The position numbers and the translations under genes were made by a program. Below are positions 4,389-62,506 of a stretch of DNA of 64,000 nt, one piece after another. Source of the DNA: an uncultured virus (IMG/VR IMGVR_UViG_3300008108_000012) (Duplodnaviria > Heunggongvirae > Uroviricota > Caudoviricetes). The notes under the pieces were generated by a model. It worked only from the letters and a program-made list of their open reading frames with translations. It had not been told where the DNA came from and ran no database searches. The stretch lies in IMG/VR virus record IMGVR_UViG_3300008108_000012, one strand, 5' to 3'. Each line of letters begins with the position of its first letter. Within the stretch, counting starts at the first letter, position 1.

Positions 4389-5300
4389 TTAGAACCTAGA
4401 TTGACTAATGAATGCTGTGTATGCGTCAGTTCCGGTCTTTATCAACGTAATGGTGTAGCAATCAACAGAGCTGGCATTTCCGGATGGTGAAACATTTCCA
4501 CCAAACCACTTAGATGTAACTGCCCCCGTAACTCCATCTACCGTTATTGACGAAAGCTTATGTGCGGAGGTTCCGTTTGTGGCGAACAAAGCAAACGTCA
4601 CTGCCTGCCCTGTTGTCAGCATTGAGTTGAGGGTTGTTGACCCATCACCCCGTAGATTCCATATCCAGTTTGCTGAAGTGTTGGCCGTGAAGTAATGAAC
4701 ACTGCCGTCTTTGATATTGATGTCTACGGTGCCAGTCAGGGCAGTTGTATTTATAACAACTTTCTCAACTATTTCTTCTATTTTTGTTGTCCCTGATAAA
4801 GACAGGTTTTCCGCTAGTTTGCTGGAAGTTACCGCAGCGGCCCCTATTTTGTCGACCGTAACTGCTTCGTCGTCCAACTTCGCTTCAGTAACAGAACCAT
4901 CTACTATTTCTGCTTCTGATACGGCCGTCATCCAGGACAACAGATAGGTATCTATTCCGGTCTTTGTCAAAGATGCTCTTGACCACCTATGGGTCAACGT
5001 TGTCAAAGAGCCTTCTGAGTTAATTACAACTGATGGAGCGCCAGTAATCGACAACGAGCCCGTGCCGCCATACACAATTTCTATTGAGTCTCCATTAGCA
5101 ATAGCCAAACCTGTGGGTATTGTCAATGTAACTGGATTGGAGTTGCTGGTAAAGATAAGGATGTGACCGACGTCATCTGTCTCAAGAGTGTATGTAGACC
5201 CGGAAACTGTTGACACCGGGTAGTTGTATGTGCTCGCCTGGAGCGTATTCATCTGTGATGCCGTCAAAGTTTGACCGGCAGAAAATACCTGAAGAGCCAT
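4389..5300 (-). CDS. Tail fibre-like structural protein
   Basis: N-terminal FSAGQTLTASQMN; AVTxxKL repeats; beta-rich C-terminal domain. Confidence 0.7.
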   Translation of the reverse strand: MALQVFSAGQTLTASQMNTLQASTYNYPVSTVSGSTYTLETDDVGHILIFTSNSNPVTLTIPTGLAIANGDSIEIVYGGTGSLSITGAPSVVINSEGSLTTLTHRWSRASLTKTGIDTYLLSWMTAVSEAEIVDGSVTEAKLDDEAVTVDKIGAAAVTSSKLAENLSLSGTTKIEEIVEKVVINTTALTGTVDINIKDGSVHYFTANTSANWIWNLRGDGSTTLNSMLTTGQAVTFALFATNGTSAHKLSSITVDGVTGAVTSKWFGGNVSPSGNASSVDCYTITLIKTGTDAYTAFISQSRF

Positions 5301-5730: not shown

Positions 5731-7662
5731 ATGCGTTTACATGTCCGTCGTGGCGCGTGGATTTATTTTGCGCTTATTTTATGGGTATCCGTAGGCCCCT
5801 TCATGACGGGCGCATCAGCACAATCAGAGCCAGGATTAACCGTAACCATTTACAACAACTTTGGCTACAATGGCTCTCCGCCTCTTCCAGCAGTATCCGG
5901 AAGGCCGTCTGTTGGTCAGATGACCGTTTCGAGGGTTGAGCAAAACTTTGACCAGTCTCCACCTTTTAACTTATATGAGGACTTCATTGTCCAATACGAA
6001 GGCTATGTGACATCTCCGGTTTCTGGGACATTTAATTTTTTGCCCACAGCAGATGACGGTACAAAGCTCTACATAGATGATGTTCTGGTCCAGAACGACT
6101 GGAGAGACAAGGGTGGCGGAGGAGCGGTTTCCGATGCTGTTACTTTTGAGGCCGGAGTTTCTAAGAAATTCGAGATGTGGTTCTACGAAAACGGTGGAGG
6201 AGCATGGACAACTCTTTACTGGAACATAAATGGTGGATGGGAAGTTGTTCCAGATAGCGCATTTACAAAACAAGTTGCCACCACAACCACTACAACATTG
6301 GCTCCGTATTTTAACCCTCCAACAAACCTAACCGCGCTTGTCGTTGAAGACAACCAGGTAAAGCTCACATGGGAGGCCGGAGAGCCAAGCAACATAGAGC
6401 CACACATGTGGAACATCACGTGGTTTGAGATGGATTCCGGAGAACGGAGCGGTGGTTGGGGGATTTGGACGTACGCCAACACGCTTACTGCCACTATTAC
6501 TTTGGGTTCAGACACTTCTGGTTATGGGGACACCCAATTTACTGTTAGCGCGGGAACTGCTGCGTGTGTTGGGGAAGGGCAAGGCTCGTGTTTATATGGA
6601 CCACCTGCAGTCACTGATATAAGCGTTTCTGTACCTACTACAACTACCAGCACTACAACTACGACCAGCACTACTACGACTACAGAGCCCGAGCCAGAAA
6701 CCACTACAACTACAGAGCCCGAACCAGAAACAACTACTACAACAGAGCCTGAACCAGTATTGCCGGAGGAACCAGTTGCAGGACCAATTTCCCCTGAAAC
6801 GACAGAAGTCGAAGTACCACAACAAGAAGAACCAACGGAAACGCCGCCAACCACAGACGCGCCGGCACTAGAAGAGGAAACGCAAGCGTCGATTGATGAA
6901 CTAGACACAGAAAATGTATCTACCACCGCTTTGTCAAATGCTGTATCAAACATAATCGACAGCATTGCCAACCCTGACGAGCTAGGTGAAGCAGTTAATG
7001 ACATATTAGATAAGCCTCTGACTGACGAACAATTCACCGCTGTTATAGATGAAGTCTTTTCTGAGCCATTATCCACTGAAGAATTAACAAACGTCCTTGA
7101 TGCAGTCTTTGATGAACCGCTTTCTGATGAAAAGTTTGACGAAGTTATATCCACGGTTCTCGACCAACCCCTGACTGACGAACAATTTGCTGCCGTTATC
7201 GATGTTTTGGAGAACGACAGCATCACCGAAGAACAGGTCGCCAGTGCGGTCGATTCCGTTTTAGAAAACGGTGTTACAGAAGACCAGGCCACAGAGCTTG
7301 CCACGAGCGCAAAAGTCTTGGAAAGTATTGATGGCGAGCAGGCTGCTGAGATTTTCGCCGCTGTTGATATTGCCGAGGTAACCCCAGAAGAAGCTGCTCA
7401 ACTTGTCGAGGCTGTCCAAGATGCCCCTGCGGAAGTTAGAAGTTCTTTTGAGGAAGAAATAAACGTCTTTGATGGGGTTGTTGACACTTATGTCCCACTT
7501 GACTCAAATGTCAGCGTAGGCGTACGTCGCGTCATAATAGCAGCTACTACTGTATTATCTATTACGGCATTACCTACTAGTCCATCGTCTGGCAGTTCCG
7601 GTGGAGGTTCTGGCGGTGGTTCCAGTGGTGGGCCGAGCGACAGCGGGAGAAGACGCAAATGA
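5731..7662 (+). CDS. Secreted PA14 + FN3 domain protein with Thr/Glu-Pro linker and acidic helical repeats
   Basis: Signal-like N-terminus; PA14 motifs ADDGTKLYID and YENGGGA; TTTTTEPEPE repeats; repeated L[ST]DE[QK]F..V...V. Confidence 0.8.
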   Translation: MRLHVRRGAWIYFALILWVSVGPFMTGASAQSEPGLTVTIYNNFGYNGSPPLPAVSGRPSVGQMTVSRVEQNFDQSPPFNLYEDFIVQYEGYVTSPVSGTFNFLPTADDGTKLYIDDVLVQNDWRDKGGGGAVSDAVTFEAGVSKKFEMWFYENGGGAWTTLYWNINGGWEVVPDSAFTKQVATTTTTTLAPYFNPPTNLTALVVEDNQVKLTWEAGEPSNIEPHMWNITWFEMDSGERSGGWGIWTYANTLTATITLGSDTSGYGDTQFTVSAGTAACVGEGQGSCLYGPPAVTDISVSVPTTTTSTTTTTSTTTTTEPEPETTTTTEPEPETTTTTEPEPVLPEEPVAGPISPETTEVEVPQQEEPTETPPTTDAPALEEETQASIDELDTENVSTTALSNAVSNIIDSIANPDELGEAVNDILDKPLTDEQFTAVIDEVFSEPLSTEELTNVLDAVFDEPLSDEKFDEVISTVLDQPLTDEQFAAVIDVLENDSITEEQVASAVDSVLENGVTEDQATELATSAKVLESIDGEQAAEIFAAVDIAEVTPEEAAQLVEAVQDAPAEVRSSFEEEINVFDGVVDTYVPLDSNVSVGVRRVIIAATTVLSITALPTSPSSGSSGGGSGGGSSGGPSDSGRRRK

Positions 7663-15043: not shown

Positions 15044-15514
15044 TTACGGAATCAGTTTGTAGTGGAGCTTTTCCCATTCACGCACTTGCTCCTGGTAGGC
15101 TTCCGAGAAGAATGTTCGGTCTCCATTGGTGTTCACTGCGACGGAGGATATGCCTCCCATCAGGCGTACGGTGGCGAGCACGCAGGGATGATACTTATCT
15201 TCAGCGTAGGTGCCAGAGGACACTGATTCTGACAGTGAGCGGACCTGACCCCACGCTTCGACAGGAGAGGGAGCCGGCGGCAATTGGCTGCACGCCTTCA
15301 GTACGGCTTTCCGAATCTGACCTGGACGCGGCATGTACGTGTCGTGCAGGGCTGCGGTCGATATGGCTTGTACGACGGCGGCGTACTCCAGGTCAAGAAT
15401 AAACTCAGCCCAGGCGCGCAGAGCAGCCTTCTTGGGGGCATCTGAGCTAGGCAGGCGGTCGTTCCAGTGTGAGTAGAGAAGTTCTACTGCTTTGACTACT
15501 TCGTCCTTGGTCAT
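15044..15514 (-). CDS. Replicative helicase loader/inhibitor-like protein (G39P-like)
   Basis: AW.....DL.Y..V..AI.......MP.PGQIR pattern; next to an initiator-like gene. Confidence 0.6.
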   Translation of the reverse strand: MTKDEVVKAVELLYSHWNDRLPSSDAPKKAALRAWAEFILDLEYAAVVQAISTAALHDTYMPRPGQIRKAVLKACSQLPPAPSPVEAWGQVRSLSESVSSGTYAEDKYHPCVLATVRLMGGISSVAVNTNGDRTFFSEAYQEQVREWEKLHYKLIP

Positions 15515-16882: not shown

Positions 16883-17187
16883 GCGGTAATACTAGTTCTT
16901 CCGCCACCGTAAAAGAGTTGTACTAGGAACCTTTTTTGGTGGGTTTCTTCTCCAGGATGGCACCAGGGCCGCCAGATAGGAGCTCCATGGTCTGGGGCTT
17001 TCCAGTGTGAGACTTCTTGTTTGCGCAAACAGGTGGAGTCGAGACAGAGACCATCAACTCCACCTTGTTGCTGCACTTTGGGCATTTCCATGCGAACCTC
17101 TTAGACATGGTCCGGGATGGTAGCACCATTTTTGTCAACTGCAGGTGAATAGCGCTACGACGGCCAAAGCGAATATCACTGTGGCCA

Positions 17188-17499
17188 TTATTGTTCGCCT
17201 GCCAGGCTGCGGATGTACTGCAGAATTTCATGACGTTTCTCGTCTGGCTGGTCTGCGTAGACCTTGAACATGATGCTGACGAAGCTCTTAAGTACCTCGA
17301 GCATGCAATCGTTCAGCAGCTGGCCAGCTTCATCGATGAGGTCTTCAATCTCGTCGACGGTCCCAGCAGCGATAATTTCACGACGCCCAGGGTGGTCGAG
17401 GTGCACGCAGCGGATTTGGGGGCTCAGTGGGAACCCCTTCTTTTCCAGGGAGTCCCAGATATAGAGGTCTTCATATGGGTTGGGCATGTCATCAAACAT
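17188..17499 (-). CDS. Hypothetical protein
   Basis: RBS AAAGGA; 103 aa. Confidence 0.6.
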   Translation of the reverse strand: MFDDMPNPYEDLYIWDSLEKKGFPLSPQIRCVHLDHPGRREIIAAGTVDEIEDLIDEAGQLLNDCMLEVLKSFVSIMFKVYADQPDEKRHEILQYIRSLAGEQ

Positions 17500-23978: not shown

Positions 23979-24033
23979 ACCTTACAGGTGTCAATGGTAG
24001 TTGTCAATAGGTTTCTGTGTGTCGTTTGTCACA
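23979..24033 (-). promoter_or_regulatory. Leftward promoter with upstream box TGTGACAAACGACAC
   Basis: TTGACA(24002-24007)-17-TAAGGT(23979-23984); box at 24019-24033. Confidence 0.75.
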
Positions 24034-24380: not shown

Positions 24381-24425
24381 TGTGACAAACGACACATTGA
24401 CATTGTGCCTTACACTCTGTAACTT
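24381..24425 (+). promoter_or_regulatory. Cassette promoter with box
   Basis: TGTGACAAACGACAC-A-TTGACA-17-TAACTT. Confidence 0.8.
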
Positions 24426-24459: not shown

Positions 24460-24915
24460 ATGACCACATCATCACCTGTGCGTATGGCAGAACTTGCCCA
24501 GCGCACACTCACTATGGAAGGGGGCGAAGGCTTCACTATGGAACAGGCGATACTGTTCGCATACTGCGCTGACGGTTTCCGTCTTCTCGCAACAGCAGAA
24601 GACATTTACGAAGCGTTGGAGAGCCTTCCACACATTCAGTCGCTCAAAGAAGACGACCAAGGCATTGGCATCATCACAACAGGTTGGGCTGCGCCACTCG
24701 GTGACAACGGAGAAGTAGAAGGCGCACCAAGCGCACACCCTGAGCGCAAGCGTGTACGCCTTTGCTCGTGCGTTGAGCGTGGTGGAAAAATGGGGTCGGC
24801 TCTCGCCTTTGAGACTGACCCTGACGACCTCGTGACAGACGAAGGCAACGGAACAGGCTCACTCGCTAACGCCTTGCTCTCTGCTCTCAACGCACTTCTC
24901 GCCAAGAACAACTAA
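24460..24915 (+). CDS. Cassette hypothetical protein
   Basis: RBS AAGGGG; flanked by promoter and terminator. Confidence 0.75.
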   Translation: MTTSSPVRMAELAQRTLTMEGGEGFTMEQAILFAYCADGFRLLATAEDIYEALESLPHIQSLKEDDQGIGIITTGWAAPLGDNGEVEGAPSAHPERKRVRLCSCVERGGKMGSALAFETDPDDLVTDEGNGTGSLANALLSALNALLAKNN

Positions 24916-26432: not shown

Positions 26433-26705
26433 GAACAGGTGTTCGGTGAGACACATTTGGTGCGACTGTCTCGTGAGACTAACTGGGGGAAAGTGTCTCA
26501 GACTGGGAGAAGGGTCTTCCACCACCGTCAAAGTCCTGTGGGAGCCCCGCGGGACAAAAATCCCGTCCGGGACTTCCGCCCCATCTGTGTTGCCATCGGC
26601 GACATCGGCGACATCGGGTTGCGTTGCTTGCCGACAGCCACTAAGGTATGCCCATGTCATTAGTCTCTATTGTTGTAGTCATCGCACTCATCGCATTGTT
26701 CGCAA

Positions 26706-26759
26706 GTGGCTAATGTCACACAATAACTATTTGACAAGTGGCTACTAACTTTGTAGTCT
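26706..26759 (+). promoter_or_regulatory. Cassette promoter with inverted box
   Basis: GTGGCTAATGTCACA-10-TTGACA-17-TAGTCT. Confidence 0.7.
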
Positions 26760-27447: not shown

Positions 27448-28023
27448 ATGGAAGAAGAACAGACACCATCTGAACTATTGGCTTCTGTAATCGCTCGCGC
27501 GATGGAAGTCAAGTACGAGATGTGCGTGGACAACAATGGAATGTGCGATACGCCACCTGTACTGCTCGGTGAACTACCGACAGGCGAAGGCTTCATCGCA
27601 CCCGACTACAACGATGGACACCCAACCGACACCTTGCCGTTGATGCTGTCAGCACTCGCTGAAACGATGATGGCACAGTTCTCATCGGTTCAATGGAAGT
27701 GGCTTGCGTATGTCGTAGAAGGCTACGCAAAGCCAACACACGAAGGGGTGGAGAGCCTGCCCGAAGATTGGAGCCGTGGAATGTACGAAGAAGAGTACAA
27801 GACGAACCCAACAAGCGATGTGCGTGAAGGGCTTATCGTGGGTCTGTATCCGTGGGAAGGACAAGCCATCGGAACAACCGTGTTCTATCGCTACAACGAC
27901 AAGGGCTTGCCTGTCTATGACGAGCCTGAGATGTTGGAAGGCGAGATGGAAGGGACTGTCGCAGACATCTTCAAGGCGTTCACGATGGCGTGTAAGACAA
28001 TCACCAACGCCAAGAACAACTAG
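27448..28023 (+). CDS. Cassette hypothetical protein (apparent paralogue of 47665-48294)
   Basis: RBS AGGGGGG; shared K..CV...G..D.P, V.EG[YW] and S.V.E.L motifs. Confidence 0.75.
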   Translation: MEEEQTPSELLASVIARAMEVKYEMCVDNNGMCDTPPVLLGELPTGEGFIAPDYNDGHPTDTLPLMLSALAETMMAQFSSVQWKWLAYVVEGYAKPTHEGVESLPEDWSRGMYEEEYKTNPTSDVREGLIVGLYPWEGQAIGTTVFYRYNDKGLPVYDEPEMLEGEMEGTVADIFKAFTMACKTITNAKNN

Positions 28024-28040
28024 ACCGTACCCCCTACGGA

Positions 28041-28083
28041 AGGGGGGTCGCCTGCCAAGTACGGTGGGCGACCCCCCTTTTTT
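28041..28083 (+). terminator. Intrinsic terminator
   Basis: AGGGGGGTCGCC...GGCGACCCCCCT-TTTTT. Confidence 0.8.
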
Positions 28084-28164
28084 CGTGTACCCAACCAGCC
28101 CTCTTCCACCACCGTCAAAGCAAACCCGTTGCGCTTAGCAGCCCCGCCCGGTATTATTTATGAG

Positions 28165-28386
28165 ATGTCGTACGTTCGCTATGTGTGTGAGTTCTGTAAT
28201 CACGAAGTCCAGCCAGGGCAAAGTGGAACAATGAAGTTGGTGTTGGCGTGGGTGCGTTCAGACAACAACACAGGAATAAAGGGTGTGAAGAACCAGCACA
28301 AGTACGCTCATTCCATCTGTGTGGAAACAGAGACTAAGCGTGGTGGTAAGCGAGAAGGCTCAAACGGCGAGCAGACGCTGTTTTAG
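28165..28386 (+). CDS. Small zinc-binding protein
   Basis: CEFC...HSIC; TATTAT 7 nt before the ATG (leaderless-like). Confidence 0.6.
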   Translation: MSYVRYVCEFCNHEVQPGQSGTMKLVLAWVRSDNNTGIKGVKNQHKYAHSICVETETKRGGKREGSNGEQTLF

Positions 28387-28429
28387 AGTGCGAACAGCAA
28401 CGCAATCGCAACGAGAACGATGATGGCAG

Positions 28430-28819
28430 TCACTTTGTATCCTTAGATACGAGCACCCAGCCACCTTTGCCGTCTCCGATGTAGGTCTCTTTGCCTTTCC
28501 AACCCCAAGCCCAGCGACAGCATGAAGGGTCAAGGGTACAGTCATCATTACTGTCAAAGTCAGCGTGATGAATGAAGTTCGGGTGACAGCCACCACGAAG
28601 TTTCTCTCCGAGCAACGGAAAAGCATCTAGAAGTTTGACAACGCAGTCGTGACACATACTGATAAAGCGACTTTCATCGCTACCAAGTAGGACGCCCACA
28701 TTGTCGTCAAAGCCACCGTAGTAGCCGAAGTGGTCAATAGGCAAAGACCAGCCCCCGTCAGGAAGGCTGTCTTGTTGTGTGTTCGGTTGCTCTACACCAC
28801 AGGTATCGCAGGTAATCAT
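28430..28819 (-). CDS. Cys-rich cassette protein
   Basis: CDTC...GYYGGF.D...CHDC. Confidence 0.65.
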   Translation of the reverse strand: MITCDTCGVEQPNTQQDSLPDGGWSLPIDHFGYYGGFDDNVGVLLGSDESRFISMCHDCVVKLLDAFPLLGEKLRGGCHPNFIHHADFDSNDDCTLDPSCCRWAWGWKGKETYIGDGKGGWVLVSKDTK

Positions 28820-28827
28820 TGTGTCTT

Positions 28828-29031
28828 TCAGGGTTGGTAGATGTTGTACCCGTATGGGTCGTACAGAGTTGTCGTGGTCTCACACGGGTAGTGAAAATAC
28901 TCGCAGTCAGGGACGCCTTGTTTCTCATCTCCGATAGATGCGATAAGAAATAGAGTTGCGCCGATGAGAGTTGTCCAAAAGACAAACCTCACGAACGAAC
29001 GCACCTTGTAATAGATAGGTGGGTGGCTCAT
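28828..29031 (-). CDS. Small membrane protein (paralogue of 32613-32810)
   Basis: YYKVRSFVR, TM segment, PDCEYFHYPC...DPY. Confidence 0.7.
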   Translation of the reverse strand: MSHPPIYYKVRSFVRFVFWTTLIGATLFLIASIGDEKQGVPDCEYFHYPCETTTTLYDPYGYNIYQP

Positions 29032-29237
29032 TCCTTCTCCCAACTACGGAAGTATTCAGGGTCGCCGACCCAAAATGCGCCTTCACCATTTGCCTTGTTC
29101 AGCCATTCGTCAAGGTTGGCATGAAGGAAGGCACGGTACCCCTCGGTCACCTCATCTGTGTTGTGCTTACAGATGTCCGACTGAACATTGTCGCCATCGG
29201 CATTGGTGTAGATGATTTCTCCACAGAACTCTTTCAT
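29028..29237 (-). CDS. Cassette hypothetical protein, probably leaderless
   Basis: ATG lies 7 nt after -10 TACCAT. Confidence 0.6.
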   Translation of the reverse strand: MKEFCGEIIYTNADGDNVQSDICKHNTDEVTEGYRAFLHANLDEWLNKANGEGAFWVGDPEYFRSWEKE

Positions 29238-29244
29238 GGGGTGA

Positions 29245-29288
29245 ATGGTACAGGTGTCAAGCACACATGACAAGTGGCAGTTGTCACA
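29245..29288 (-). promoter_or_regulatory. Leftward cassette promoter with box
   Basis: TGTGACAACTGCCAC-TTGTCA-17-TACCAT on the minus strand. Confidence 0.75.
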
Positions 29289-29494
29289 TCGTTGAGAGAC
29301 AAGCAAGGGTGAGGTCGTCAAGACGGGGACACATCACGATGAGTTCTTCCACCACCGTCAAATCTCTCTGGGAGCCCCGATGGGCCGCTGCGGCCGTCCG
29401 GGACTTCCGCCCGCACTCGTGCGCCTGCGCCCGTGCGCCCGTGGGAGTTTCTCGGCTCGGCTGTCGGGGTTGGCTCGGACTGCCTCGCCTGTCG

Positions 29495-29538
29495 TGTGAC
29501 AAACGCCACTTGTGTTAGTGCTGTGTTGCCTGTACCCT
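29495..29538 (+). promoter_or_regulatory. Cassette promoter with box
   Basis: TGTGACAAACGCCAC-TTGTGT-17-TACCCT. Confidence 0.7.
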
Positions 29539-29559
29539 GTCAGGTGTAAGGGGGTGATT

Positions 29560-29922
29560 ATGAAAGCAACCAAAACAGACCTATCGCTTATGGCGTTACT
29601 CTGCTCAGACCGTGAAGGTCGCCCGTGCGATACGGGCGAAGTCTTAGCCCAAGTGGGCAAGATGAACTTTCTCGCTGTGTGCGGTGGCAAGTGGGCGAAG
29701 GTTTACGATTCAGGCATGGAGACTGTCGGCGTGTTGATGCTCTGCGGAGAATCTCGCGCGGTGGAAGTCGTGCTAGACCCGTGGGATACCTACACAGTGC
29801 GCCGTGTGCGCCTTGTGACCCGTGGAGAACTGAAGGGTTCAATCGTTGTGGAGTCGCAAGTTTCAGATGTCTATTGTGACAACTTGAGCGAAGTCGTCTA
29901 TTCCGCTTCCTGCTGGAAGTAA
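29560..29922 (+). CDS. Cassette hypothetical protein
   Basis: RBS AAGGGGGTG; ATG at 29560. Confidence 0.7.
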   Translation: MKATKTDLSLMALLCSDREGRPCDTGEVLAQVGKMNFLAVCGGKWAKVYDSGMETVGVLMLCGESRAVEVVLDPWDTYTVRRVRLVTRGELKGSIVVESQVSDVYCDNLSEVVYSASCWK

Positions 29923-29944
29923 CCAACAACCAAAACAACCGAGC

Positions 29945-29978
29945 AAGCCCGCCGTGTGCCCCCCGCACGGCGGGCTTT
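29945..29978 (+). terminator. Intrinsic terminator
   Basis: AAGCCCGCCGTG...CACGGCGGGCTTT. Confidence 0.75.
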
Positions 29979-30397
29979 GCTTTGCCCGTGTGCCTGTGAC
30001 CTTGACCCTTGCCCGTGGTGCGCCGTCTTCCGCCACCGTCAAAGTAAGTGAGATGGGGGCGAGAGCCCCGCTACCCCGCCCCCATCAAGCTCAGCTCAGC
30101 TCGACGGGCACGCTCAGCTCGAGGATTTTCTGCGTTTGTTTTTTGAAAAAGTCACGCTGCGTGGTCAAAGTTTGTCAAAACTCACGGAGAGTGGTCATTT
30201 TTGCTCGACTTTACTTTTTAGTTCGAGAAAAAGCAAGCGAAGAGGGCCAACTTCCGGCTTTCTGGCCAGATGTCCCTGGCAGCCCCGATGCGGCCGCACG
30301 GCCGTCCGGGACTTCTGCCCAGATGGCATCGCCAGACGGAGTTGCTCAGGTTGTCCATCGCTCTTGCTCGGTCAAGCCAAACTCGTGCTCGTCTCGG

Positions 30398-30442
30398 TGT
30401 GACACACGACACGTTGCGACTGTGGCGTACAGGGTGTAGTTT
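30398..30442 (+). promoter_or_regulatory. Cassette promoter with box
   Basis: TGTGACACACGACAC-G-TTGCGA-17-TAGTTT. Confidence 0.7.
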
Positions 30443-30464
30443 GCTATTACCTAAGGAGGGGTTT

Positions 30465-30677
30465 ATGCCGGAGTTCTATCCGGAAGAAACCAAAGTCCAA
30501 AAGTCAAAACGATTTGCTAAATCCCAAGGAAAGATAGTAAAAGCATTTAGTCACACAAAGTGTGGTAGGTGCGGAACCATCATTGGTGAAGGCGTTGAGT
30601 GTATTTGGCTCAATGGAAAAGGTTGCTTCCACAAGCAAGGCGAATGTCCAAAGAAAGAAGAACAACAAGAAGAATGA
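30465..30677 (+). CDS. Small zinc-finger cassette protein
   Basis: RBS AAGGAGG; CGRCG..I..G...W.....H....C. Confidence 0.7.
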   Translation: MPEFYPEETKVQKSKRFAKSQGKIVKAFSHTKCGRCGTIIGEGVECIWLNGKGCFHKQGECPKKEEQQEE

Positions 30678-30724
30678 CAGCGTTGATAGTTGCGCTGGCA
30701 GTTCTTTTATTGTTGGCAATCTGA
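30674..30724 (+). CDS. 16-aa hydrophobic micropeptide MTALIVALAVLLLLAI
   Basis: ATGA overlap with the upstream stop; ends just before the terminator. Confidence 0.55.
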   Translation: MTALIVALAVLLLLAI

Positions 30725-30727
30725 ACG

Positions 30728-30760
30728 AAAGCCCGTCACAGAAATGTGGCGGGTTTTTTT
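30728..30760 (+). terminator. Intrinsic terminator
   Basis: GCCCGTCACA-GAAA-TGTGGCGGGT-TTTTTT. Confidence 0.8.
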
Positions 30761-31160
30761 GTGCCCGTCTTCCACCACCGTCAATGTAAATGAGACTGGG
30801 TCATCAGCCCCGCTGCTAACCCAGTTGATGTCCAGCATCTGAGTTCCTCACGACGTACGACATCGGATTATCAACTTTGTTTTCTTTTGTTTTTTGGAAA
30901 ACGCTCACTCTGCGTGGTCGGAAAGTCAAAAAGTTCACGGAAAGTGGCAAAAACGAAGCGAAAGTCAAGTTCTTTGGAGTTTTTTGCTTGGCGCAAGCCC
31001 CCGTCGCTCACCCGTCGTACGTGCGATGGGTTTTCCCCGCGGTAGCCCCGTTTACCCAGTGCGGGGAAACGGGACTGTTCCGTGGTTTCTGGCCCTGGAC
31101 GGCCCGGCGGCCCGGAAGTCGGACTGGCGCAGCGCAACTCGGACTGACCTGAGGCTCGGC

Positions 31161-31205
31161 TGTGACAAACGACACTTTGACATTTGCGCTTGACACCTGT
31201 AGCCT
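31161..31205 (+). promoter_or_regulatory. Cassette promoter with box
   Basis: TGTGACAAACGACAC-T-TTGACA-17-TAGCCT. Confidence 0.8.
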
Positions 31206-31225
31206 GTAGGCAAGAAGGGGGGGAA

Positions 31226-31393
31226 ATGAAGTTTTATGCCAACATCACGCTCAACATAGATGAGTTTGATGCAGATAACGAAGAAAAAGCAAAAGAAATA
31301 ATAGATTCGTACATCACAAGCCTTGCAAACACTGAAGATGAAAGTCTTTCGTGGCAAGAAATGAACTACGAAGTGAAAGAAGCCACTGAATGA
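31226..31393 (+). CDS. Small acidic cassette protein
   Basis: RBS AAGGGGGGG; ATG at 31226. Confidence 0.65.
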   Translation: MKFYANITLNIDEFDADNEEKAKEIIDSYITSLANTEDESLSWQEMNYEVKEATE

Positions 31394-31446
31394 GCATCGC
31401 CATTACGGCGTTTACTCTTTTTTTGTTGTTCTCCGCCGTGAACTAA
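31390..31446 (+). CDS. 18-aa hydrophobic micropeptide MSIAITAFTLFLLFSAVN
   Basis: ATGA overlap with the upstream stop; ends just before the terminator. Confidence 0.55.
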   Translation: MSIAITAFTLFLLFSAVN

Positions 31447-31451
31447 GAACC

Positions 31452-31484
31452 GCCCGTCCCTGAAAGGGGGCGGGTTTTTCTTTT
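31452..31484 (+). terminator. Intrinsic terminator
   Basis: GCCCGTCCCT-GAA-AGGGGGCGGGT-TTTTCTTT. Confidence 0.8.
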
Positions 31485-31606
31485 CCCCGTCTTCCGCCAC
31501 CGTCGTAAAAGTGCCATCACGAAGGTCGTGAGCCCCGCTGATTTACCAGATGCTCGTGTCTGGTTCGCCAGACAAACCGTGAACTTCGGCGACTCCAACT
31601 CGTGCC

Positions 31607-31650
31607 TGTGACAAACAACACTTGACACTCCTTGTGCTGTTCAGTACACT
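31607..31650 (+). promoter_or_regulatory. Cassette promoter with box
   Basis: TGTGACAAACAACAC-TTGACA-17-TACACT. Confidence 0.8.
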
Positions 31651-31657
31651 CGCCCGT

Positions 31658-31942
31658 ATGCAAATAATCACCACTATCAACGAACCGATACCTTTTATCG
31701 GAACGGTTGATGAAATGTTAGCCAACTACAACACTCACCTATGGTGGCAAGACCCCGAATCGTGGGAATCGGTATGTGACCGCTGCGCCTGTAAAGGTTG
31801 GCACAAGGCTGCCAAGTATCCGTGTGGGACAGAGCCACCTCGCCGTGATGTCGTTGTGTGGGTTGATGCAGAAGGTAATCAGCATCGCAACCACCCGACC
31901 CTTGCTGCTTTGGGTATCGCTAGCGATGAGATTGTAGAGTGA
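31658..31942 (+). CDS. Cys-containing cassette protein, probably leaderless
   Basis: ATG lies 7 nt after the -10 element; THLW...CDRCAC...YPCG. Confidence 0.65.
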   Translation: MQIITTINEPIPFIGTVDEMLANYNTHLWWQDPESWESVCDRCACKGWHKAAKYPCGTEPPRRDVVVWVDAEGNQHRNHPTLAALGIASDEIVE

Positions 31943-31989
31943 CCGCTGTCATTTTGACGGTTGCTGTTTTCTTGCTGCTTGCTGTCTAG
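31939..31989 (+). CDS. 16-aa hydrophobic micropeptide MTAVILTVAVFLLLAV
   Basis: GTGA overlap with the upstream stop; ends before the terminator. Confidence 0.55.
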   Translation: MTAVILTVAVFLLLAV

Positions 31990-32003
31990 TAGATAATCCA
32001 CTT

Positions 32004-32032
32004 GCCGCCCTGCTTAGTCGTGGGGCGGCTTT
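32004..32032 (+). terminator. Intrinsic terminator
   Basis: GCCGCCCTGC...GTGGGGCGGC-TTT. Confidence 0.7.
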
Positions 32033-32547
32033 GTGCTGCCCGTAATCGCCTCGCATCGCCGTCTCTCTGCCCGTCTCGGCGACTTGCGGCTTGATGGTGT
32101 CCCTAAATACCCTGCTTCCAACCTGAGCCTTTCTAGATGTCTAGCGTTGCTCAAAGTTGGAACATCTCAGCCCGTCTTCCGCCACCGTCAGTTTATTGCG
32201 GGTAGTCGCGGGGCTCTCGAGCGCCAGCCGCACGGGGAGTTGCACGGGCGGCAGACCTCAGATGGCATCGGCTTTCGGGCAGTTTTTCGGTTTTCTTATT
32301 TTTTTAGAAACTGAAAAACCCGAAATCCTTTATTTTGGCGACTTCACGAACTTGACTTTTGAGTTTTTCGTGTTATGTTGGCAAACTTTGCCACACCCCC
32401 TTCTTCCGCCCGCGTTAGCCCCGTAAAGCTCGAAGAGCTGCACGGGACTGTCAGTCTTCTGGACGACGGAGTTGTTCTTCGGCTTCGGCTTGTTGCTGGC
32501 TCGGCTTGGAACTTCGGAAGGCTTCGCAACTTTCTTTTCGGAAAGAC

Positions 32548-32576
32548 TTGACATCGTGCCTTGTTGCTTGTAAGGT
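32548..32576 (+). promoter_or_regulatory. Sigma70-type promoter (no box seen)
   Basis: TTGACA-17-TAAGGT. Confidence 0.7.
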
Positions 32577-32612
32577 ACAGGGTGGGTGGAGTGCCTAGCG
32601 AAAGGAAATGCT

Positions 32613-32810
32613 ATGTACTACTTCGTACGCTCGTGCGTGCGCTGGGGTTTACTAATGCTCACTCTTACTCTTGCTGTTTTTGGTTGTTCCAAACTCGCAA
32701 GCATAGATGAGACGGAAATACCTGAGTGCGAGTACTTTCACTATCCCTGCCCGTGGGATACGACAGTACCCGACCCTTATTTTGACCCAACAACAGAGAT
32801 AGGGGGGTGA
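32613..32810 (+). CDS. Small membrane protein or lipoprotein (paralogue of 28828-29031)
   Basis: RBS AAAGGA; YYFVRSCVR, TM segment, PECEYFHYPC...DPY. Confidence 0.7.
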   Translation: MYYFVRSCVRWGLLMLTLTLAVFGCSKLASIDETEIPECEYFHYPCPWDTTVPDPYFDPTTEIGG

Positions 32811-32811
32811 G

Positions 32812-32865
32812 ATGGTTGCCGTTGTGGTTGCTTTGACAGTTTTTGCTTTATTGTCGGTTGGATAA
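32812..32865 (+). CDS. 17-aa hydrophobic micropeptide MVAVVVALTVFALLSVG
   Basis: RBS AGGGGGG; starts 1 nt after the upstream stop; ends before the terminator. Confidence 0.55.
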   Translation: MVAVVVALTVFALLSVG

Positions 32866-32878
32866 ATACCCGAACACG

Positions 32879-32909
32879 GGGGCGCATCGTTATTCGGTGC
32901 GCCCCTTTT
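32879..32909 (+). terminator. Intrinsic terminator
   Basis: GGGGCGCATCG-TTATT-CGGTGCGCCCC-TTTT. Confidence 0.8.
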
Positions 32910-33031
32910 GTTTTGCCCGAACTCAGCAACCTGCTTGGGTGTTTTTTCTGCTTCGCAGTCCCGGCTCCAAACAAGAGCCTTGTTTGAAGCCCCGGAGTTG
33001 TTATTTTGTGTTGTCGCCGTAGAATCTACAT

Positions 33032-33376
33032 ATGCCAACACAGAAACTCTGGTCGGACCGCCACCCGGATTATGGAGTGCCTTATAAGGTCATCCAAAGA
33101 AATTCCTGGGCCGAAACCATTTTGAGCTACGCAGCTTTTACCGTGCGAGTCCGTCCACCCGGATATTTCACACATGATAGTTACTGCGAGTTCAGGATGG
33201 GAAACCTGCCGCGCAAAGAGTCATTCCAGTCAGCCATCAAGAAGCTTGTTGGTCTGGGGTATTTAATCGAGACATCGCCAGGTAGCTACCAAATAACATC
33301 AAAGGGGCTAGACGCCAACCTGCGCATCTCGAGACGAAACGCTAAAGCGCGTAACCGCATTGCCGACGAGGATTAA
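33032..33376 (+). CDS. Winged-helix-like protein
   Basis: AIKKLVGLGYLI......YQITSKG; TAGAAT shortly before the ATG. Confidence 0.6.
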   Translation: MPTQKLWSDRHPDYGVPYKVIQRNSWAETILSYAAFTVRVRPPGYFTHDSYCEFRMGNLPRKESFQSAIKKLVGLGYLIETSPGSYQITSKGLDANLRISRRNAKARNRIADED

Positions 33377-33690
33377 TACTTTCTCCACTCGCCTTCGTTG
33401 TCGTCGTTGCCATCCCAGTAGGTACAGACACTTCCTAAATGCTTTGCGGCAACGTCGATGGCGGGGAACTGCTTGGAGAGAGCCTCGTGCAAGTTTTCCA
33501 GCCACCCGGCACACCATATGTCTTCTGACATGTAAGCCATGAGGCGTGGCATCATCCATCTGACCGCCTGGAGTAGTTCGAGGTACTCAATTGTATGCGG
33601 GTCATTTTTGTAGCCAGCATTAAGAGCCACGTGCAGTTCGGTCCAAGACCGTGCTACGTCTTCAGGGTCATAAAAACGCTCTTCGCTCAT
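33373..33690 (-). CDS. Hypothetical protein
   Basis: RBS AAGGA; 105 aa. Confidence 0.6.
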   Translation of the reverse strand: MSEERFYDPEDVARSWTELHVALNAGYKNDPHTIEYLELLQAVRWMMPRLMAYMSEDIWCAGWLENLHEALSKQFPAIDVAAKHLGSVCTYWDGNDDNEGEWRKY

Positions 33691-33728
33691 TGTTTTTTAT
33701 TCCTTAGCGGATTAGAATTGATATCGCA

Positions 33729-35684
33729 ATGGATGATAGCACTCTCTTTTTATGGGACGACCACCTAGCGGCGTCCTTCCCTTATAACGCTGAGCAAGTA
33801 GCGCAGGTGAAAGCTGTGCCGGGGGCAAAGTGGGACAAGGTCGCCAAAGTATGGCGCATACCGATGACCAGTCTTCATGAAGCCAGGGTGTTTGCCGAAC
33901 TACATCGGTTCAAAATCGATAACGAAGTTCTCAAGTTCAACCTGCCGGAGTCAACCAACAAGGCTCAGGGTGTTTATGTCGACGATGATTGGGTGTACCT
34001 AAGTTTCAATTACGACCCGGTAAAGGTTCGGTCGGTTAAATCGTTGCCATCAGTAACATGGCACCCACCAACCAAAGCGTGGCGTGTACCGCTTGCTGCC
34101 ATCCACGACGCCATCGCATGGGCAGAGAAGTTCGATGAACCCATAGCCGAACGTGTTCGAGCTATTGCTGGGGTTATGGAGCGGAGCAAAAACGAAACCA
34201 TTGCGGCGTCACGAGCAAAAGATGCGGAAATCGAAATACCAGGACTGCAGGGCAACCTTCTGCCGTACCAGCGAGCCGGAGTTAAGTATGCCGCCAATGC
34301 GCGTCGTTGTTTTATCGCAGACGACATGGGGCTTGGAAAAACCATGCAGGCCATCGCTACTCTTGAATACGTTCACGATTCCTACCCAGCCGTAGTTGTA
34401 TGTCCTCCGACACTGGTGCTCAACTGGGCTAAGGAGTACGAGAAGTGGCTCCCACACAGACGGGTTGCAACGGTAACAAACCGCAAGGACCTGCCGGAGC
34501 CGGGCACTTATGATGTTGTCGTTGTGGGGTATAGCAATATTGACCACTGGCAAAACCATCTTAAGGGCCATCGGTCATATGTGTATGACGAGAGCCACTA
34601 CGCAAAGACGCCAACAGCAAAACGTACCAAGGCGGCCATAAAGATGGCGCGTTCCGCTCCCAAAGAAGGAATAGTTCTGTGTCTAACCGGCACGCCAATC
34701 ACAAACCGACCAGCCGAATACGCGGCTCAGCTTGACATCTTAGGTAACCTAAACAAATTCGGTGGCCTATGGGGTTTCTACCGACGATACTGTGCGGCTT
34801 TCCGTGACAGATTCGGGCAGTGGCACATCGACGGCTCGTCTCACCTTGATGAACTCAACGACATGCTGCGTAGTCAGTGCTACATCCGTCGTATTAAAGC
34901 CGATGTTCTCGAAGAGCTGCCGCCAGTTCGCCACTCAAAGATTGTCGTTGCGCCCAACCCGACAGCCATGGCCGAGTACACCAAAGCCGAAGATGACATT
35001 ATTGAATACATGGCCAATCGCGCTAAAGAGTTGGCTAAAGAACTCGGCAAGTCTCCATATTCCGCTGCTGTCGTAGCCCGCATCAAAGCAGAGTCAAACG
35101 AACACCTAGTTCGCATTTCTGTTCTGCGCCGACTAGCCGCAAAAGCGAAGATGGATACAGTCTTTGAGTGGATTGATGGCAAGCTGGCCGGTGGCGACAA
35201 GGTTGTTGTCGCTGCACATCACCGCGAAATTGTCGACCTCATTGCAAAGAAGTATGGGGGCTTGAAAATTCAGGGTGGCATGAAGGTAGAAGAAGTCGAA
35301 GAGAACAAGCGCATCTTCCAAGCTGAATCCATTGACGAAGCACCCGTGATGGTGCTCTCGATTCAGGCTGCCAAGACAGGTCACACACTCACGGCAGCAC
35401 AGGATGTTGTCTTTGTAGAAATGCCATGGACACCTGCTGATGTTGACCAGACCTACAGTCGGTGCCATCGCCTTGGGCAGAAAGGCTCAGTGATGTCCAC
35501 ATACATTCTTGCCGAGGGAACTATCGACGAAAAGATTTATGGTCTTATCGAATCAAAGCGCGACGTTGTGAATCAAGCAACCGAAGGTAGCGATGTAGAA
35601 TTTAGTGATGGAAACCAACAGCTTGTGCTCGATTTCCTTGCCGAAGGCCTGCGCCGGAGCAAGATGAATGGAGTGGATGGATGA
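33729..35684 (+). CDS. SNF2-family helicase with HARP-like N-terminal repeats (SMARCAL1-like)
   Basis: DDMGLGKT, DESH, LTGTP and Q..SRCHRLGQ motifs; two VK.[VL]P...W....K.W repeats. Confidence 0.9.
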   Translation: MDDSTLFLWDDHLAASFPYNAEQVAQVKAVPGAKWDKVAKVWRIPMTSLHEARVFAELHRFKIDNEVLKFNLPESTNKAQGVYVDDDWVYLSFNYDPVKVRSVKSLPSVTWHPPTKAWRVPLAAIHDAIAWAEKFDEPIAERVRAIAGVMERSKNETIAASRAKDAEIEIPGLQGNLLPYQRAGVKYAANARRCFIADDMGLGKTMQAIATLEYVHDSYPAVVVCPPTLVLNWAKEYEKWLPHRRVATVTNRKDLPEPGTYDVVVVGYSNIDHWQNHLKGHRSYVYDESHYAKTPTAKRTKAAIKMARSAPKEGIVLCLTGTPITNRPAEYAAQLDILGNLNKFGGLWGFYRRYCAAFRDRFGQWHIDGSSHLDELNDMLRSQCYIRRIKADVLEELPPVRHSKIVVAPNPTAMAEYTKAEDDIIEYMANRAKELAKELGKSPYSAAVVARIKAESNEHLVRISVLRRLAAKAKMDTVFEWIDGKLAGGDKVVVAAHHREIVDLIAKKYGGLKIQGGMKVEEVEENKRIFQAESIDEAPVMVLSIQAAKTGHTLTAAQDVVFVEMPWTPADVDQTYSRCHRLGQKGSVMSTYILAEGTIDEKIYGLIESKRDVVNQATEGSDVEFSDGNQQLVLDFLAEGLRRSKMNGVDG

Positions 35685-35833
35685 CGCCGAGTGGGAAACC
35701 GAGTGGCAAATCTTTTTCATGCTTGAAAACGGGCTTGTTGAATATTTGGGAGACAATGATGACGGTGAGCCTCTCTTTAGGATTACCCCAGCGTTTCTTG
35801 AATTCTCACGCATAATCGTTGATATGTTTGACG

Positions 35834-36277
35834 ACGATGAAGATTAATAAGAAGAGCGCGCCACAGCGTAATGTCGTTGACATCATAAAGACCGGAAGCT
35901 GGGGAAACGTTGAGTATCTCCATAGACTCGAATGTGGACACACGGAGATACGTAAGCGACATGCGTCCACGAGCGCTATCTCATGCACCGGGTGCGTCAA
36001 GGCGCAAATAGCTCAAGAAACCCTAACTCAGCTCGCTGTAAAGCCAACCGTCTTTGTGGACGTTGCTGACATACACGATGAACTTGCTACAGAAATCGCA
36101 TCATACGAGCAAGACATTGGACGAACCAGGGCTTCTTTGGCGGCAGCACTTGGGGTTACTGTGGCGGATGTTGAGTTGATTGTTACCGAAAGCGATAACG
36201 GGTCACTAAGCGTCTCTCAGGCGATGGTTTTTCTCGGACCTTCAGCTATCAACAATCTCATCAAATCGGTCAAGTGA
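35834..36277 (+). CDS. Hypothetical zinc-binding protein
   Basis: LECGH...CTGC; start uncertain. Confidence 0.6.
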   Translation, partial: TMKINKKSAPQRNVVDIIKTGSWGNVEYLHRLECGHTEIRKRHASTSAISCTGCVKAQIAQETLTQLAVKPTVFVDVADIHDELATEIASYEQDIGRTRASLAAALGVTVADVELIVTESDNGSLSVSQAMVFLGPSAINNLIKSVK

Positions 36278-61162: not shown

Positions 61163-62506
61163 TTAGGCAGTTGGTGCTGCGTCGAAGTCAACCTTGACGA
61201 ATGCTTCTGGACGCTTCACTGCAAGAGCAAGACGCTGCTCAGCAAGAACCACAATTGCGTTGCGCACGAAGAAGTCTGCGTGCTGCTCTGAAATGCGGAT
61301 GCTTGCCTGCTCGCGGTCGTACAACTGTGCGCCGGTGCCGAAAGCTCCGACGAGAGCTGTGCCCTCTGCGATTGCTGGGGTGTCGATAACTGGCATGCGC
61401 CAGATACGCTGTTCTCCACCAAGAGCTACCGAGACAGCAACGAGGTACTGACCCTGGTCGTCCTTTGCGAGTTCCATGTCTTCCCAGTCGTTCGGGTGCA
61501 AGACCACGCCTGTTGGCTCGTAGTACGAGAGGAATGACAGTGTCGCAGCACGACGGATTGCGTCAGCCTTGTTGTCAGCAACTGGCAAGTGAGCACCTTC
61601 GGACCATGCGTACTCCTGGATGCCCGTGGTCTGAAGAACACCCTGAAGGTTCTCGCCGGTGCCGTCACCGTTAAGAATTTGAGAGTCCTCAAGAAGACGG
61701 AGACCGTACATGAGTTCGTTGTCGATAATGCTGCGGAGCTGTGGCTCGTCTGCAAGAACGTTGCGGTGTGCAGCTTCCCAGTGTGCAAGTGTGCGTACTG
61801 GGGCTTGCTCACCGACGAACACCATGCTCGACTGTGGCTTAGCACCAAAAGCAGTATTGCCACCATTGCGCTCAGCAACTGAAGCAGCAGCATTTGTGCC
61901 GCCGCCGGCGCTTGTGAAACCAAGCTGGCGGAAGTACTCAATGACAGCAGCTGTCGTTGTGCGGGTTGGGAAGAGGTCACGAACGCGCTTGGTACGTGTT
62001 GGCGGGGTGACGATTGGGTCACGCTGAATGGTACCGAACGAACCAGGTGTTCCTGATGGAAGTGCTGAGTAAACGTCCTTGACGCCGTAGTTTGTCAGTG
62101 ACAAACCAGCCTGCCAAGGCGAAATCATGTTTGCACCATTCTTGCCACCCTGAAGTGACTTGAACTCTGGGGATTCGGTGAACATTTGACCAATTGACTT
62201 GAAGCCCATATCGCGAGCTGCTTCGTATAGTGCATTTTCTGCACTCTTGGCGTTGTATTCAACTGCGACAGAGTTACCCTCTTCGCGGCTCCATCCGTCA
62301 ACATCCTTCATCTGCTCTAGGCCATCGATGAGGCTGCGGATTTCACGGATGTCGCGCATGTTTGAATCGAATGCGGACTTTTGTTCTGAAGACACAACAA
62401 CTGTGCCATCTTCAACCTTGAACGAATCAGCAATTGACTTGTTCTCGGCCATTTTTGTTCTGAGTGCGCCTTGTAGTTCGCGTACTCTTGCTTCGTCGTA
62501 AGACAT
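61163..62506 (-). CDS. Major capsid protein, HK97 fold
   Basis: Coiled-coil delta domain; E..IL.GDG.G..L.G; F.RN......E.R...V.RPEAF. Confidence 0.93.
   Translation of the reverse strand: MSYDEARVRELQGALRTKMAENKSIADSFKVEDGTVVVSSEQKSAFDSNMRDIREIRSLIDGLEQMKDVDGWSREEGNSVAVEYNAKSAENALYEAARDMGFKSIGQMFTESPEFKSLQGGKNGANMISPWQAGLSLTNYGVKDVYSALPSGTPGSFGTIQRDPIVTPPTRTKRVRDLFPTRTTTAAVIEYFRQLGFTSAGGGTNAAASVAERNGGNTAFGAKPQSSMVFVGEQAPVRTLAHWEAAHRNVLADEPQLRSIIDNELMYGLRLLEDSQILNGDGTGENLQGVLQTTGIQEYAWSEGAHLPVADNKADAIRRAATLSFLSYYEPTGVVLHPNDWEDMELAKDDQGQYLVAVSVALGGEQRIWRMPVIDTPAIAEGTALVGAFGTGAQLYDREQASIRISEQHADFFVRNAIVVLAEQRLALAVKRPEAFVKVDFDAAPTA

Follow-up and report, generated by a model that had tools for sequence, protein, structure and literature searches.

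What are the very short hydrophobic open reading frames (ORFs) that trail the small genes of a large uncultured lake phage? The question is raised by a DNA stretch of 64,000 nucleotides (nt) from the virus record IMGVR_UViG_3300008108_000012 (Caudoviricetes), which is referred to here, at its whole length, as the window, and in which cassettes of small ORFan genes are lined up from 15 to 33 kb. A sequence-only reading of this DNA had pointed to four such micro-ORFs on the plus strand, at 30674-30724, 31390-31446, 31939-31989 and 32812-32865, each attached to the end of an unrelated gene and placed before a terminator. Translation reproduces the peptides given there exactly, and the stop/start junctions are as described, with ATGA overlaps at 30674 and 31390, a GTGA overlap at 31939 and a 1-nt gap (TGA-G-ATG) at 32812. 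All four do end before a terminator, the hairpin of which lies 2-14 nt past the stop. Judging from the sequence comparisons presented below, the best explanation of these ORFs and of their counterparts is that they are actual, separately initiated genes for uncharged, all-hydrophobic peptides of 14-19 residues (mode 16).

Number and context of the micropeptide ORFs

The four ORFs are real, but four is not the total for the window, which holds seven: the additional ones lie at 28383-28433 (-), 17135-17188 (-) and 26654-26713 (+), and are called E, F and G here, following A to D for those named above. E and F were found by a hydropathy scan of all small ORFs in the window together with inspection of their contexts. 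G scores 15.4 bits against a profile built from 22 members, in which it was not included, compared with 11.4 bits for the top decoy among 24,912 decoy ORFs. The products are of 16 amino acids (aa) for A (MTALIVALAVLLLLAI), 18 aa for B, 16 aa for C, which starts with GTG, and 17 aa for D, which has a strong Shine-Dalgarno sequence (GGGGGG) within the end of the upstream gene. E (16 aa, GTG start, GTGA overlap with the gene at 28430-28819) is the final ORF of a leftward operon. F (17 aa) shares a TAATG overlap with the gene at 17188-17499 and stands between this 103-aa gene and a zinc-ribbon-like gene, which begins after the micropeptide, as a stop in a relative in which F is kept (L133) shows. 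G (19 aa) has no upstream gene, carries its own TAAGGT Shine-Dalgarno sequence and is followed by the promoter of the next cassette.

The pattern of a coupled gene in front and a terminator behind, as described for the first four, extends only in part to all seven: within the window the terminator is found for 4/7, G is uncoupled and F lies between two genes. None of E, F and G has a terminator behind it, and the stretch past 28383 folds like its shuffles (z=0.15). In the same way, the idea that each cassette ends in a micropeptide is right for the four cassettes on which it was based, but not for those at 24460-24915, 27448-28023 and 29560-29922, which lead directly into terminators with no micro-ORF between.

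Considering all micro-ORFs of 13-24 aa in the window, 5/69 of the coupled ones (starting at the stop of an ORF of at least 45 aa) are uncharged and hydrophobic, compared with 4/482 of the uncoupled ones (Fisher p=0.002); the ORF at 30674 is uncounted here, since there is a longer GTG start in its frame. When all loci collected from relatives except L001-L008 are taken, 121 coupled hydrophobic micro-ORFs (37 distinct peptides) are found at 6201 long-ORF stops, against 0 at 4475 stops in reversed-sequence decoys. In a non-redundant subset, for which 4 clade loci and 38 distant loci were hand-picked to limit duplicates, the rates are 16/660 against 11/1948 (p=0.0002).

Conservation, selection and separate initiation

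The relatives were collected with the SNF2 helicase gene beside the cassettes, which brought in 48 loci (labelled L with a number). Peptides A to E recur unchanged in five records from separate assemblies (L009-L013). Their place is taken by other uncharged peptides of equal length in L016 (helicase 98%), L017/18/20/21 (92%), L022/23 (91%) and L034/56 (67%), and the orthologous A-E cassettes retain the ORF in L016, L017/20/21, L022/23 and L034/56. By family, orthologues of A are present in L016, L017, L021 and L023, that of B in L016, those of both C and D in L016, L017, L020, L021, L022 and L023, and counterparts of G in L017, L021 and L022. Frames broken in relatives had been named beforehand as evidence that would speak against these ORFs; the frames were checked and stay open. 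The underlying DNA has diverged to 27-60% identity among the window paralogues, which share 7-60% of their residues, and to 36-60% between the window copies and their L017 orthologues.

Over 34 distinct DNA sequences, with lengths of 15-19 aa, the start codon is present in 34/34 (ATG in 26, GTG in 8) and only 1/539 residues is charged. In 93% of the codons, position 2 is occupied by a pyrimidine (T 65%, C 28%; A 2% and G 6%), while positions 1 and 3 are mixed, with T at 21% and 36%, respectively. Pairwise differences at codon positions 1/2/3 amount to 380/179/406 (the pairs are not independent), and for 10 close pairs the ratio of nonsynonymous to synonymous differences (pN/pS) comes to 0.57 (Fisher p=0.0008). 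In a neutral simulation, the observed number of substitutions was placed randomly and the frame was considered kept if it was open, uncharged and had a mean hydropathy of at least 1.8; such a frame survives in 0.4-12% of the trials per comparison, and for 10 chosen comparisons, one per lineage and family, the log10 values add up to -16. Out of 29 sequences, 18, 20 and 25 have stops in the respective antisense frames. The proposal of a paralogous family with selection on the peptide, not the DNA, is thereby upheld, as the divergence of the DNA has left the length, the start codon and the uncharged, hydrophobic character intact. As far as can be judged from these comparisons, selection is on the class of peptide (its length and oiliness) and not on its sequence.

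Relative to the stop of the gene in front, the orthologous micropeptides start at -4, -1, 0, +1, +2, +3, +5 or +8 to +11 nt. All three relative frames thus occur, so that no single frameshift or read-through event would suffice to join the peptide to the protein encoded ahead of it. Complementarity to the Shine-Dalgarno sequence has a median of -4.4 kcal/mol for 29 micropeptide starts, which are not independent, compared with -2.3 kcal/mol for background (p=2.5e-7), and values of -5 kcal/mol or lower are reached by 48% of the micropeptide starts and 19% of the background. In family D the G-rich Shine-Dalgarno sequence is retained, either inside the end of the upstream gene or in a 10-nt spacer. 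For A and C, the start codon is predicted to fold into a hairpin that upstream ribosomes would open, which fits translational coupling.

A boundary exchange was observed between L022 and L023. In the 130 nt that begin with the micropeptide start, the two loci agree at 98%, compared with 29% in the 90 nt before it; homology of 89% sets in at position 159 of L023, and the micropeptide of this locus starts at 163. The gene in front is of the zinc-ribbon type in L023 and of the B type in L022 (homologous to window gene B, E=3e-8), meaning that an identical peptide stands behind unrelated genes. One recombination breakpoint coincides with the start of the micropeptide, and this pair is the only one of its kind among 30 unique modules in an ungapped comparison. 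A second candidate example was set aside, its DNA being too diverged for BLAST support and only an AACAGCG motif past the stop being common. In inheritance, the micropeptide gene would lead a 3' cassette module made up of micropeptide, terminator and a TCTTCC repeat (TCTTCCRCCACCGTC), and since it heads this module, recombination can place new genes ahead of it. At the level of sequence comparison, the ORFs are shown to be independent of the identity of the upstream gene.

A search with gene E, the gene upstream of micropeptide E, gave 62 loci, of which 57 (L062-L118) were examined, L057-L061 being left out as 100% identical to the window. A coupled hydrophobic micro-ORF accompanies it in 9/33 distinct contexts, in which the E homologue is 45-73% identical. 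In L101, L102 and L107 the peptide is found as 14-aa versions, one base past the stop of a small Cys/His gene; the Cys/His gene of L102 is 40% identical (E=1e-8) to a gene of L034, which is followed by a 17-aa version. An apparent homology between window gene A and a gene of L101 was rejected as not significant (E=4.8). The copy that closes the leftward operon is found behind at least 4 different gene types. It is also followed by an AACAGCG(T/A)(C/T)T motif in L017, L022, L034, L053, L063, L070 and L102. The AACAGCG motif past the micropeptide at 28383 (-) persists even where the upstream gene differs.

Proposed action and rival explanations

The evolutionary preservation of these ORFs indicates that they are probably real membrane-acting micropeptides. 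With a probability of roughly 0.6, we take them for a fast-evolving family of translated, membrane-embedded micropeptides which act in trans and travel with the 3' ends of early-gene cassettes. Translation would proceed by re-initiation at the upstream stop (ATGA, GTGA and TAATG overlaps) or from the ORF's own Shine-Dalgarno sequence. Being too short to reach through the ribosome exit tunnel, the chain would be completed before emerging, and after release it would partition into the cytoplasmic membrane of the host. There it would act in trans, with the seven copies under repeated cassette promoters summing to a high dose. Since only length and oiliness are conserved, and not sequence, an action of low specificity is most likely, which could be perturbation or depolarisation of the bilayer or loose docking on a host membrane complex. 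The outcome would be host takeover or the exclusion of rival phages; early timing and an effect on the host are both presumed here. This proposal does not discriminate between depolarising takeover, phage exclusion and the inhibition of a membrane protein of the host.

Several observations weigh against such membrane-acting peptides. A chain of 14-16 residues is short to span a bilayer, and roughly half of the starts are poor in Shine-Dalgarno complementarity. No ORF is present in 24/33 distinct gene E contexts, nor in three cassettes of the window, so the micro-ORF is dispensable. Constraint on residue identity is weak: pN/pS is 0.70 when pooled over all pairs (a saturated value), and the window copies have 7-33% of their residues in common with the L017 orthologues, compared with 66-72% for the neighbouring proteins. 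The codon-position, simulation and Shine-Dalgarno comparisons share ancestry, and their p-values overstate independence. A small-residue helix face would have favoured specific helix packing, and none was found in the periodicity analysis: the power at 100 degrees is no better than in 9253/10000 shuffles, with the maximum falling at 120 degrees, for which reason the idea of such a face was rejected.

Among the other explanations, the least improbable, though still unlikely, is that the ORF is a device acting in cis, in which translation up to the vicinity of the intrinsic terminator masks its 5' arm or stalls at the stop and so tunes read-through into the next cassette, with the peptide being incidental, as in attenuator or TnaC-type logic. 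The short distance between stop and strong hairpin in 4/7 window ORFs is in its favour, as are the start codons of A and C, placed in a hairpin that upstream ribosomes could open, and the joint inheritance of ORF and terminator. A purely cis role is nevertheless unlikely, because three of the seven (E, F and G) lack a terminator behind them and no antiterminator pairing is predicted: in minimum-free-energy (MFE) and centroid folds of the four ORF and terminator stretches, the terminators are free-standing and show no alternative pairing to the ORF. The distance from stop to hairpin also varies among orthologues (about 4 to 20 nt, by eye), and the exclusion of charge and the T/C preference at codon position 2 are left unexplained by such a device. 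The leader peptides of attenuators come from short ORFs in which branched-chain codons abound, with an intrinsic terminator directly behind them. They differ from the present ORFs in being part of a 5' leader, whereas here the ORF is at the 3' end of the transcription unit, and has neither a run of any one regulatory codon nor, in the folds of the four stretches, an antiterminator alternative. The possibility that the frames are mere by-products, where an element of DNA or RNA that is rich in T and lies upstream of the terminators, or the terminator itself, reads by chance as a hydrophobic ORF, is already disfavoured and of very low probability. T-rich sequence does give hydrophobic codons, but the ORFs finish before the hairpins, so that the terminators do not encode the peptides, and the enrichment of T is confined to codon position 2. 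Start and stop are moreover kept while the DNA falls to 36-60% identity, and both the neutral simulation and the 0 matches in decoys contradict this account. Least probable of all is a C-terminal membrane anchor, with a programmed frameshift or stop read-through joining the hydrophobic stretch to the upstream protein as a tail anchor. Charged residues ahead of the junction in several upstream proteins, and the AGGGGGG run immediately before the TGA of gene D, could be read in this way. Against it stand the lack of a fixed frame relation at the junctions, the start codon found in every distinct sequence, the absence of an upstream gene for G and the absence of a suppressor among the 10 tRNAs of the phage.

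A toxin-antitoxin module of type I, of the Ibs kind, in which a membrane toxin restrained by an antisense RNA would make the cassette addictive, is improbable as well, ranking between the cis device and the by-product frames. IbsC and IbsA are reported to be 19-aa peptides which depolarise the membrane or inhibit Fo (PMC12648545; bioRxiv 10.1101/2025.05.26.656083), and the Ibs/Sib toxins of enterobacteria are very short, nearly all-hydrophobic single-helix peptides with several copies per genome. Set beside the Ibs size of about 18-19 hydrophobic residues, the lengths of 15-19 aa and the near absence of charge in the 34 distinct sequences agree with it (PMC12648545), and the presence of several copies per genome speaks for such a system as well. 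The sequence-only reading had drawn this comparison, and it holds for size and chemistry but does not establish membership in the family. No sigma-70-like or phage-motif promoter was found on the minus strand opposite the ORFs by consensus scans of 30.6-33.0 kb, which would leave an unconventional promoter possible, and no antisense RNA gene was detected here; the likeness is one of size and chemistry only. The ORFs appear to share transcripts with ordinary genes ahead of them, driven by promoters that look strong, and nothing suggests a toxin gene standing alone under repression; they also differ from Ibs/Sib in being phage-borne, in trailing other genes in the same transcript, in being shorter (mode 16) and in being entirely uncharged as a rule. 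Two 21-aa extended forms match no Pfam family at E<=10, and addiction would be without obvious use to an element that seems to be a large lytic-type phage.

The micropeptides are closest to the Ibs toxins in chemistry, and in architecture to the promoter-early stem-loop (PeSL) cassettes. In T4-type phages, PeSL elements are intergenic, combining a sigma-70-like promoter with a terminator hairpin and flanking small ORFans, and recombination between them swaps otherwise unrelated genes in a plastic region (PMC2839356; PMC4122927). The formation of mini-circles is a further trait of these cassettes, which occur in myoviruses of the T4 type. The window is similar in having repeated promoter and terminator units among small ORFan genes, with 11 observed against 2.3 expected promoter motifs and 28 observed against 13.7 expected terminator-like sites. 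It is also similar in the exchange of unrelated genes at a module boundary, seen in the one case of L022/L023. The text of PMC2839356, in which the words "hydrophobic" and "peptide" occur 0 times, gives PeSL elements no coding part, whereas the present module opens with a micropeptide gene under selection, contains the strand-fixed TCTTCCRCCACCGTC repeat and is separated from the next by spacers of 200-620 nt. Furthermore, the present phage has no close cultured relative, its nearest capsid and helicase matches being to actinophages. The open-access literature searched yielded no account of phage peptides of 15-19 aa that trail other genes in multiple copies. CydX, MgtR and similar small membrane proteins whose genes close an operon are of about 30-37 aa, are present in single copy and bind a protein of their own operon. 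They resemble the micropeptides as hydrophobic one-helix products that are often translationally coupled to the preceding gene. They differ in that the upstream genes here are mutually unrelated and that the peptide persists when they are exchanged.

If they are membrane-acting peptides, then it is possible, though tentative, that these ORFs are among the smallest phage genes under selection, encoding multi-copy, membrane-dosing peptides of 14-19 residues, and that they form a coding "handle" of a mobile terminator module. With such a handle, recombination at the start codon would drop new genes into a ready expression slot, and the handle would then be the coding equivalent of the cassette boundaries formed by PeSL or attC-type elements. 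The link with cassette boundaries suggests how large phages might keep their small-gene regions plastic, and should the peptides be produced, the lower size bound of phage proteins under selection would move down. As ORFs this short are discarded by gene callers, a conserved multi-copy family is invisible in the annotations of a widespread group of lake phages. Micropeptides are also cheap to synthesise and test, and hydrophobic 16-mers could be natural tools for perturbing bacterial membranes.

Cassette signals, neighbouring genes and the phage

Intrinsic terminators with a hairpin and a T run follow A at 30727-30758 (14-bp stem), B at 31452-31475, C at 32004-32029 and D at 32878-32906, all on the plus strand. 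In the cassette promoter block at 31161-31208 (+), a TGTGACAAACGACAC motif is joined to a TTGACA -35 box. The combined motif is found on the plus strand at 24381, 27361, 29495, 30398, 31161 and 31607, and TGTGACAAACGACAC sites on the minus strand are at 24033, 24141, 26432 and 29288. As it stands immediately 5' of TTGACA in most cassettes, TGTGACAAACGACAC has the look of an operator or UP-like element that the cassette promoters have in common.

The TCTTCC repeat TCTTCCRCCACCGTC (15 nt) has 12 matches compared with 0.02 expected, exclusively on the plus strand regardless of gene orientation. The copy at 30765-30782 lies directly past the terminator of A, and the sites are at 15512, 16224, 20661, 24206, 24997, 26512, 27221, 28099, 29345, 30023, 30765, 31487 and 32172 (12-13 in all). 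Most are just past a terminator, often followed by AAAG and then, after 9-26 nt, by AGCCCCG; in the distant relatives L101, L102 and L107, the repeat is found immediately past gene stops. It was considered as a structured RNA, which was dropped, since RNAalifold finds no common structure (0 pairs) over 12 copies. It may be a protein-binding site, a phage-specific promoter or a processing signal. Twelve repeat families (D1-D12) were distinguished among the cassettes. One of them (D11, 85%) comprises the common ...AKNN* tail and terminator of the paralogous cassette genes at 24460-24915 and 27448-28023 (+), which are without a micropeptide. Among the inter-cassette spacers, those at 29923-30464, 30725-31225 and 31990-32612 are unusually long (500-620 nt). 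Spacers also share blocks, 29359-29412 with 30267-30320 (80%) and 30126-30150 with 30877-30901 (80%), with no match in Rfam. The long spacers might hold unannotated RNAs or regulatory sites. At the gathering threshold, Rfam gives nothing beyond 10 tRNAs.

None of 13 small-cassette proteins belongs to a named family above the cut-off in Pfam or PHROGs, and the only weak match among them, for 29560-29922, is to a PHROG of unknown function. The upstream genes on the plus strand are gene A (30465-30677, 70 aa, CxxC zinc-ribbon-like, no family), gene B (31226-31393, 55 aa, acidic, no family above the cut-off), gene C (31658-31942, 94 aa, Cys-rich, no family) and gene D (32613-32810, 65 aa, with a signal- or lipoprotein-like N-terminus). 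On the minus strand are gene E (28430-28819, 129 aa, Cys/His-rich, no family) and gene F (17188-17499, 103 aa, no family). Gene D has a paralogue at 28828-29043 (-), and both genes, of 65-71 aa, begin with a hydrophobic, lipoprotein-like N-terminus and close with the conserved tail CEYFHYPC...DPY, with orthologues in L016, L017, L020 and L022. Exclusion lipoproteins are encoded by phages, and by analogy the pair are candidate envelope proteins.

The window is a portion of a large tailed phage with a capsid gene, tail genes, a ribonucleotide reductase, a primase and the 10 tRNAs. A virus record of 74,950 bases identical to the window has a completeness rating of 50%, and the contigs of its relatives are of 137-170 kb. 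Neither a megablast of 28000-36000 against cultured phages nor a tblastn of gene E gave a match. For the major capsid protein (61163-62506, -), the best cultured match is of 48%, to Gordonia and Brevibacterium phages, and for the SNF2 helicase (33729-35684, +) the best cultured matches are of 31-36%, to Arthrobacter phages. These actinophage matches hint at a possible freshwater actinobacterial host.

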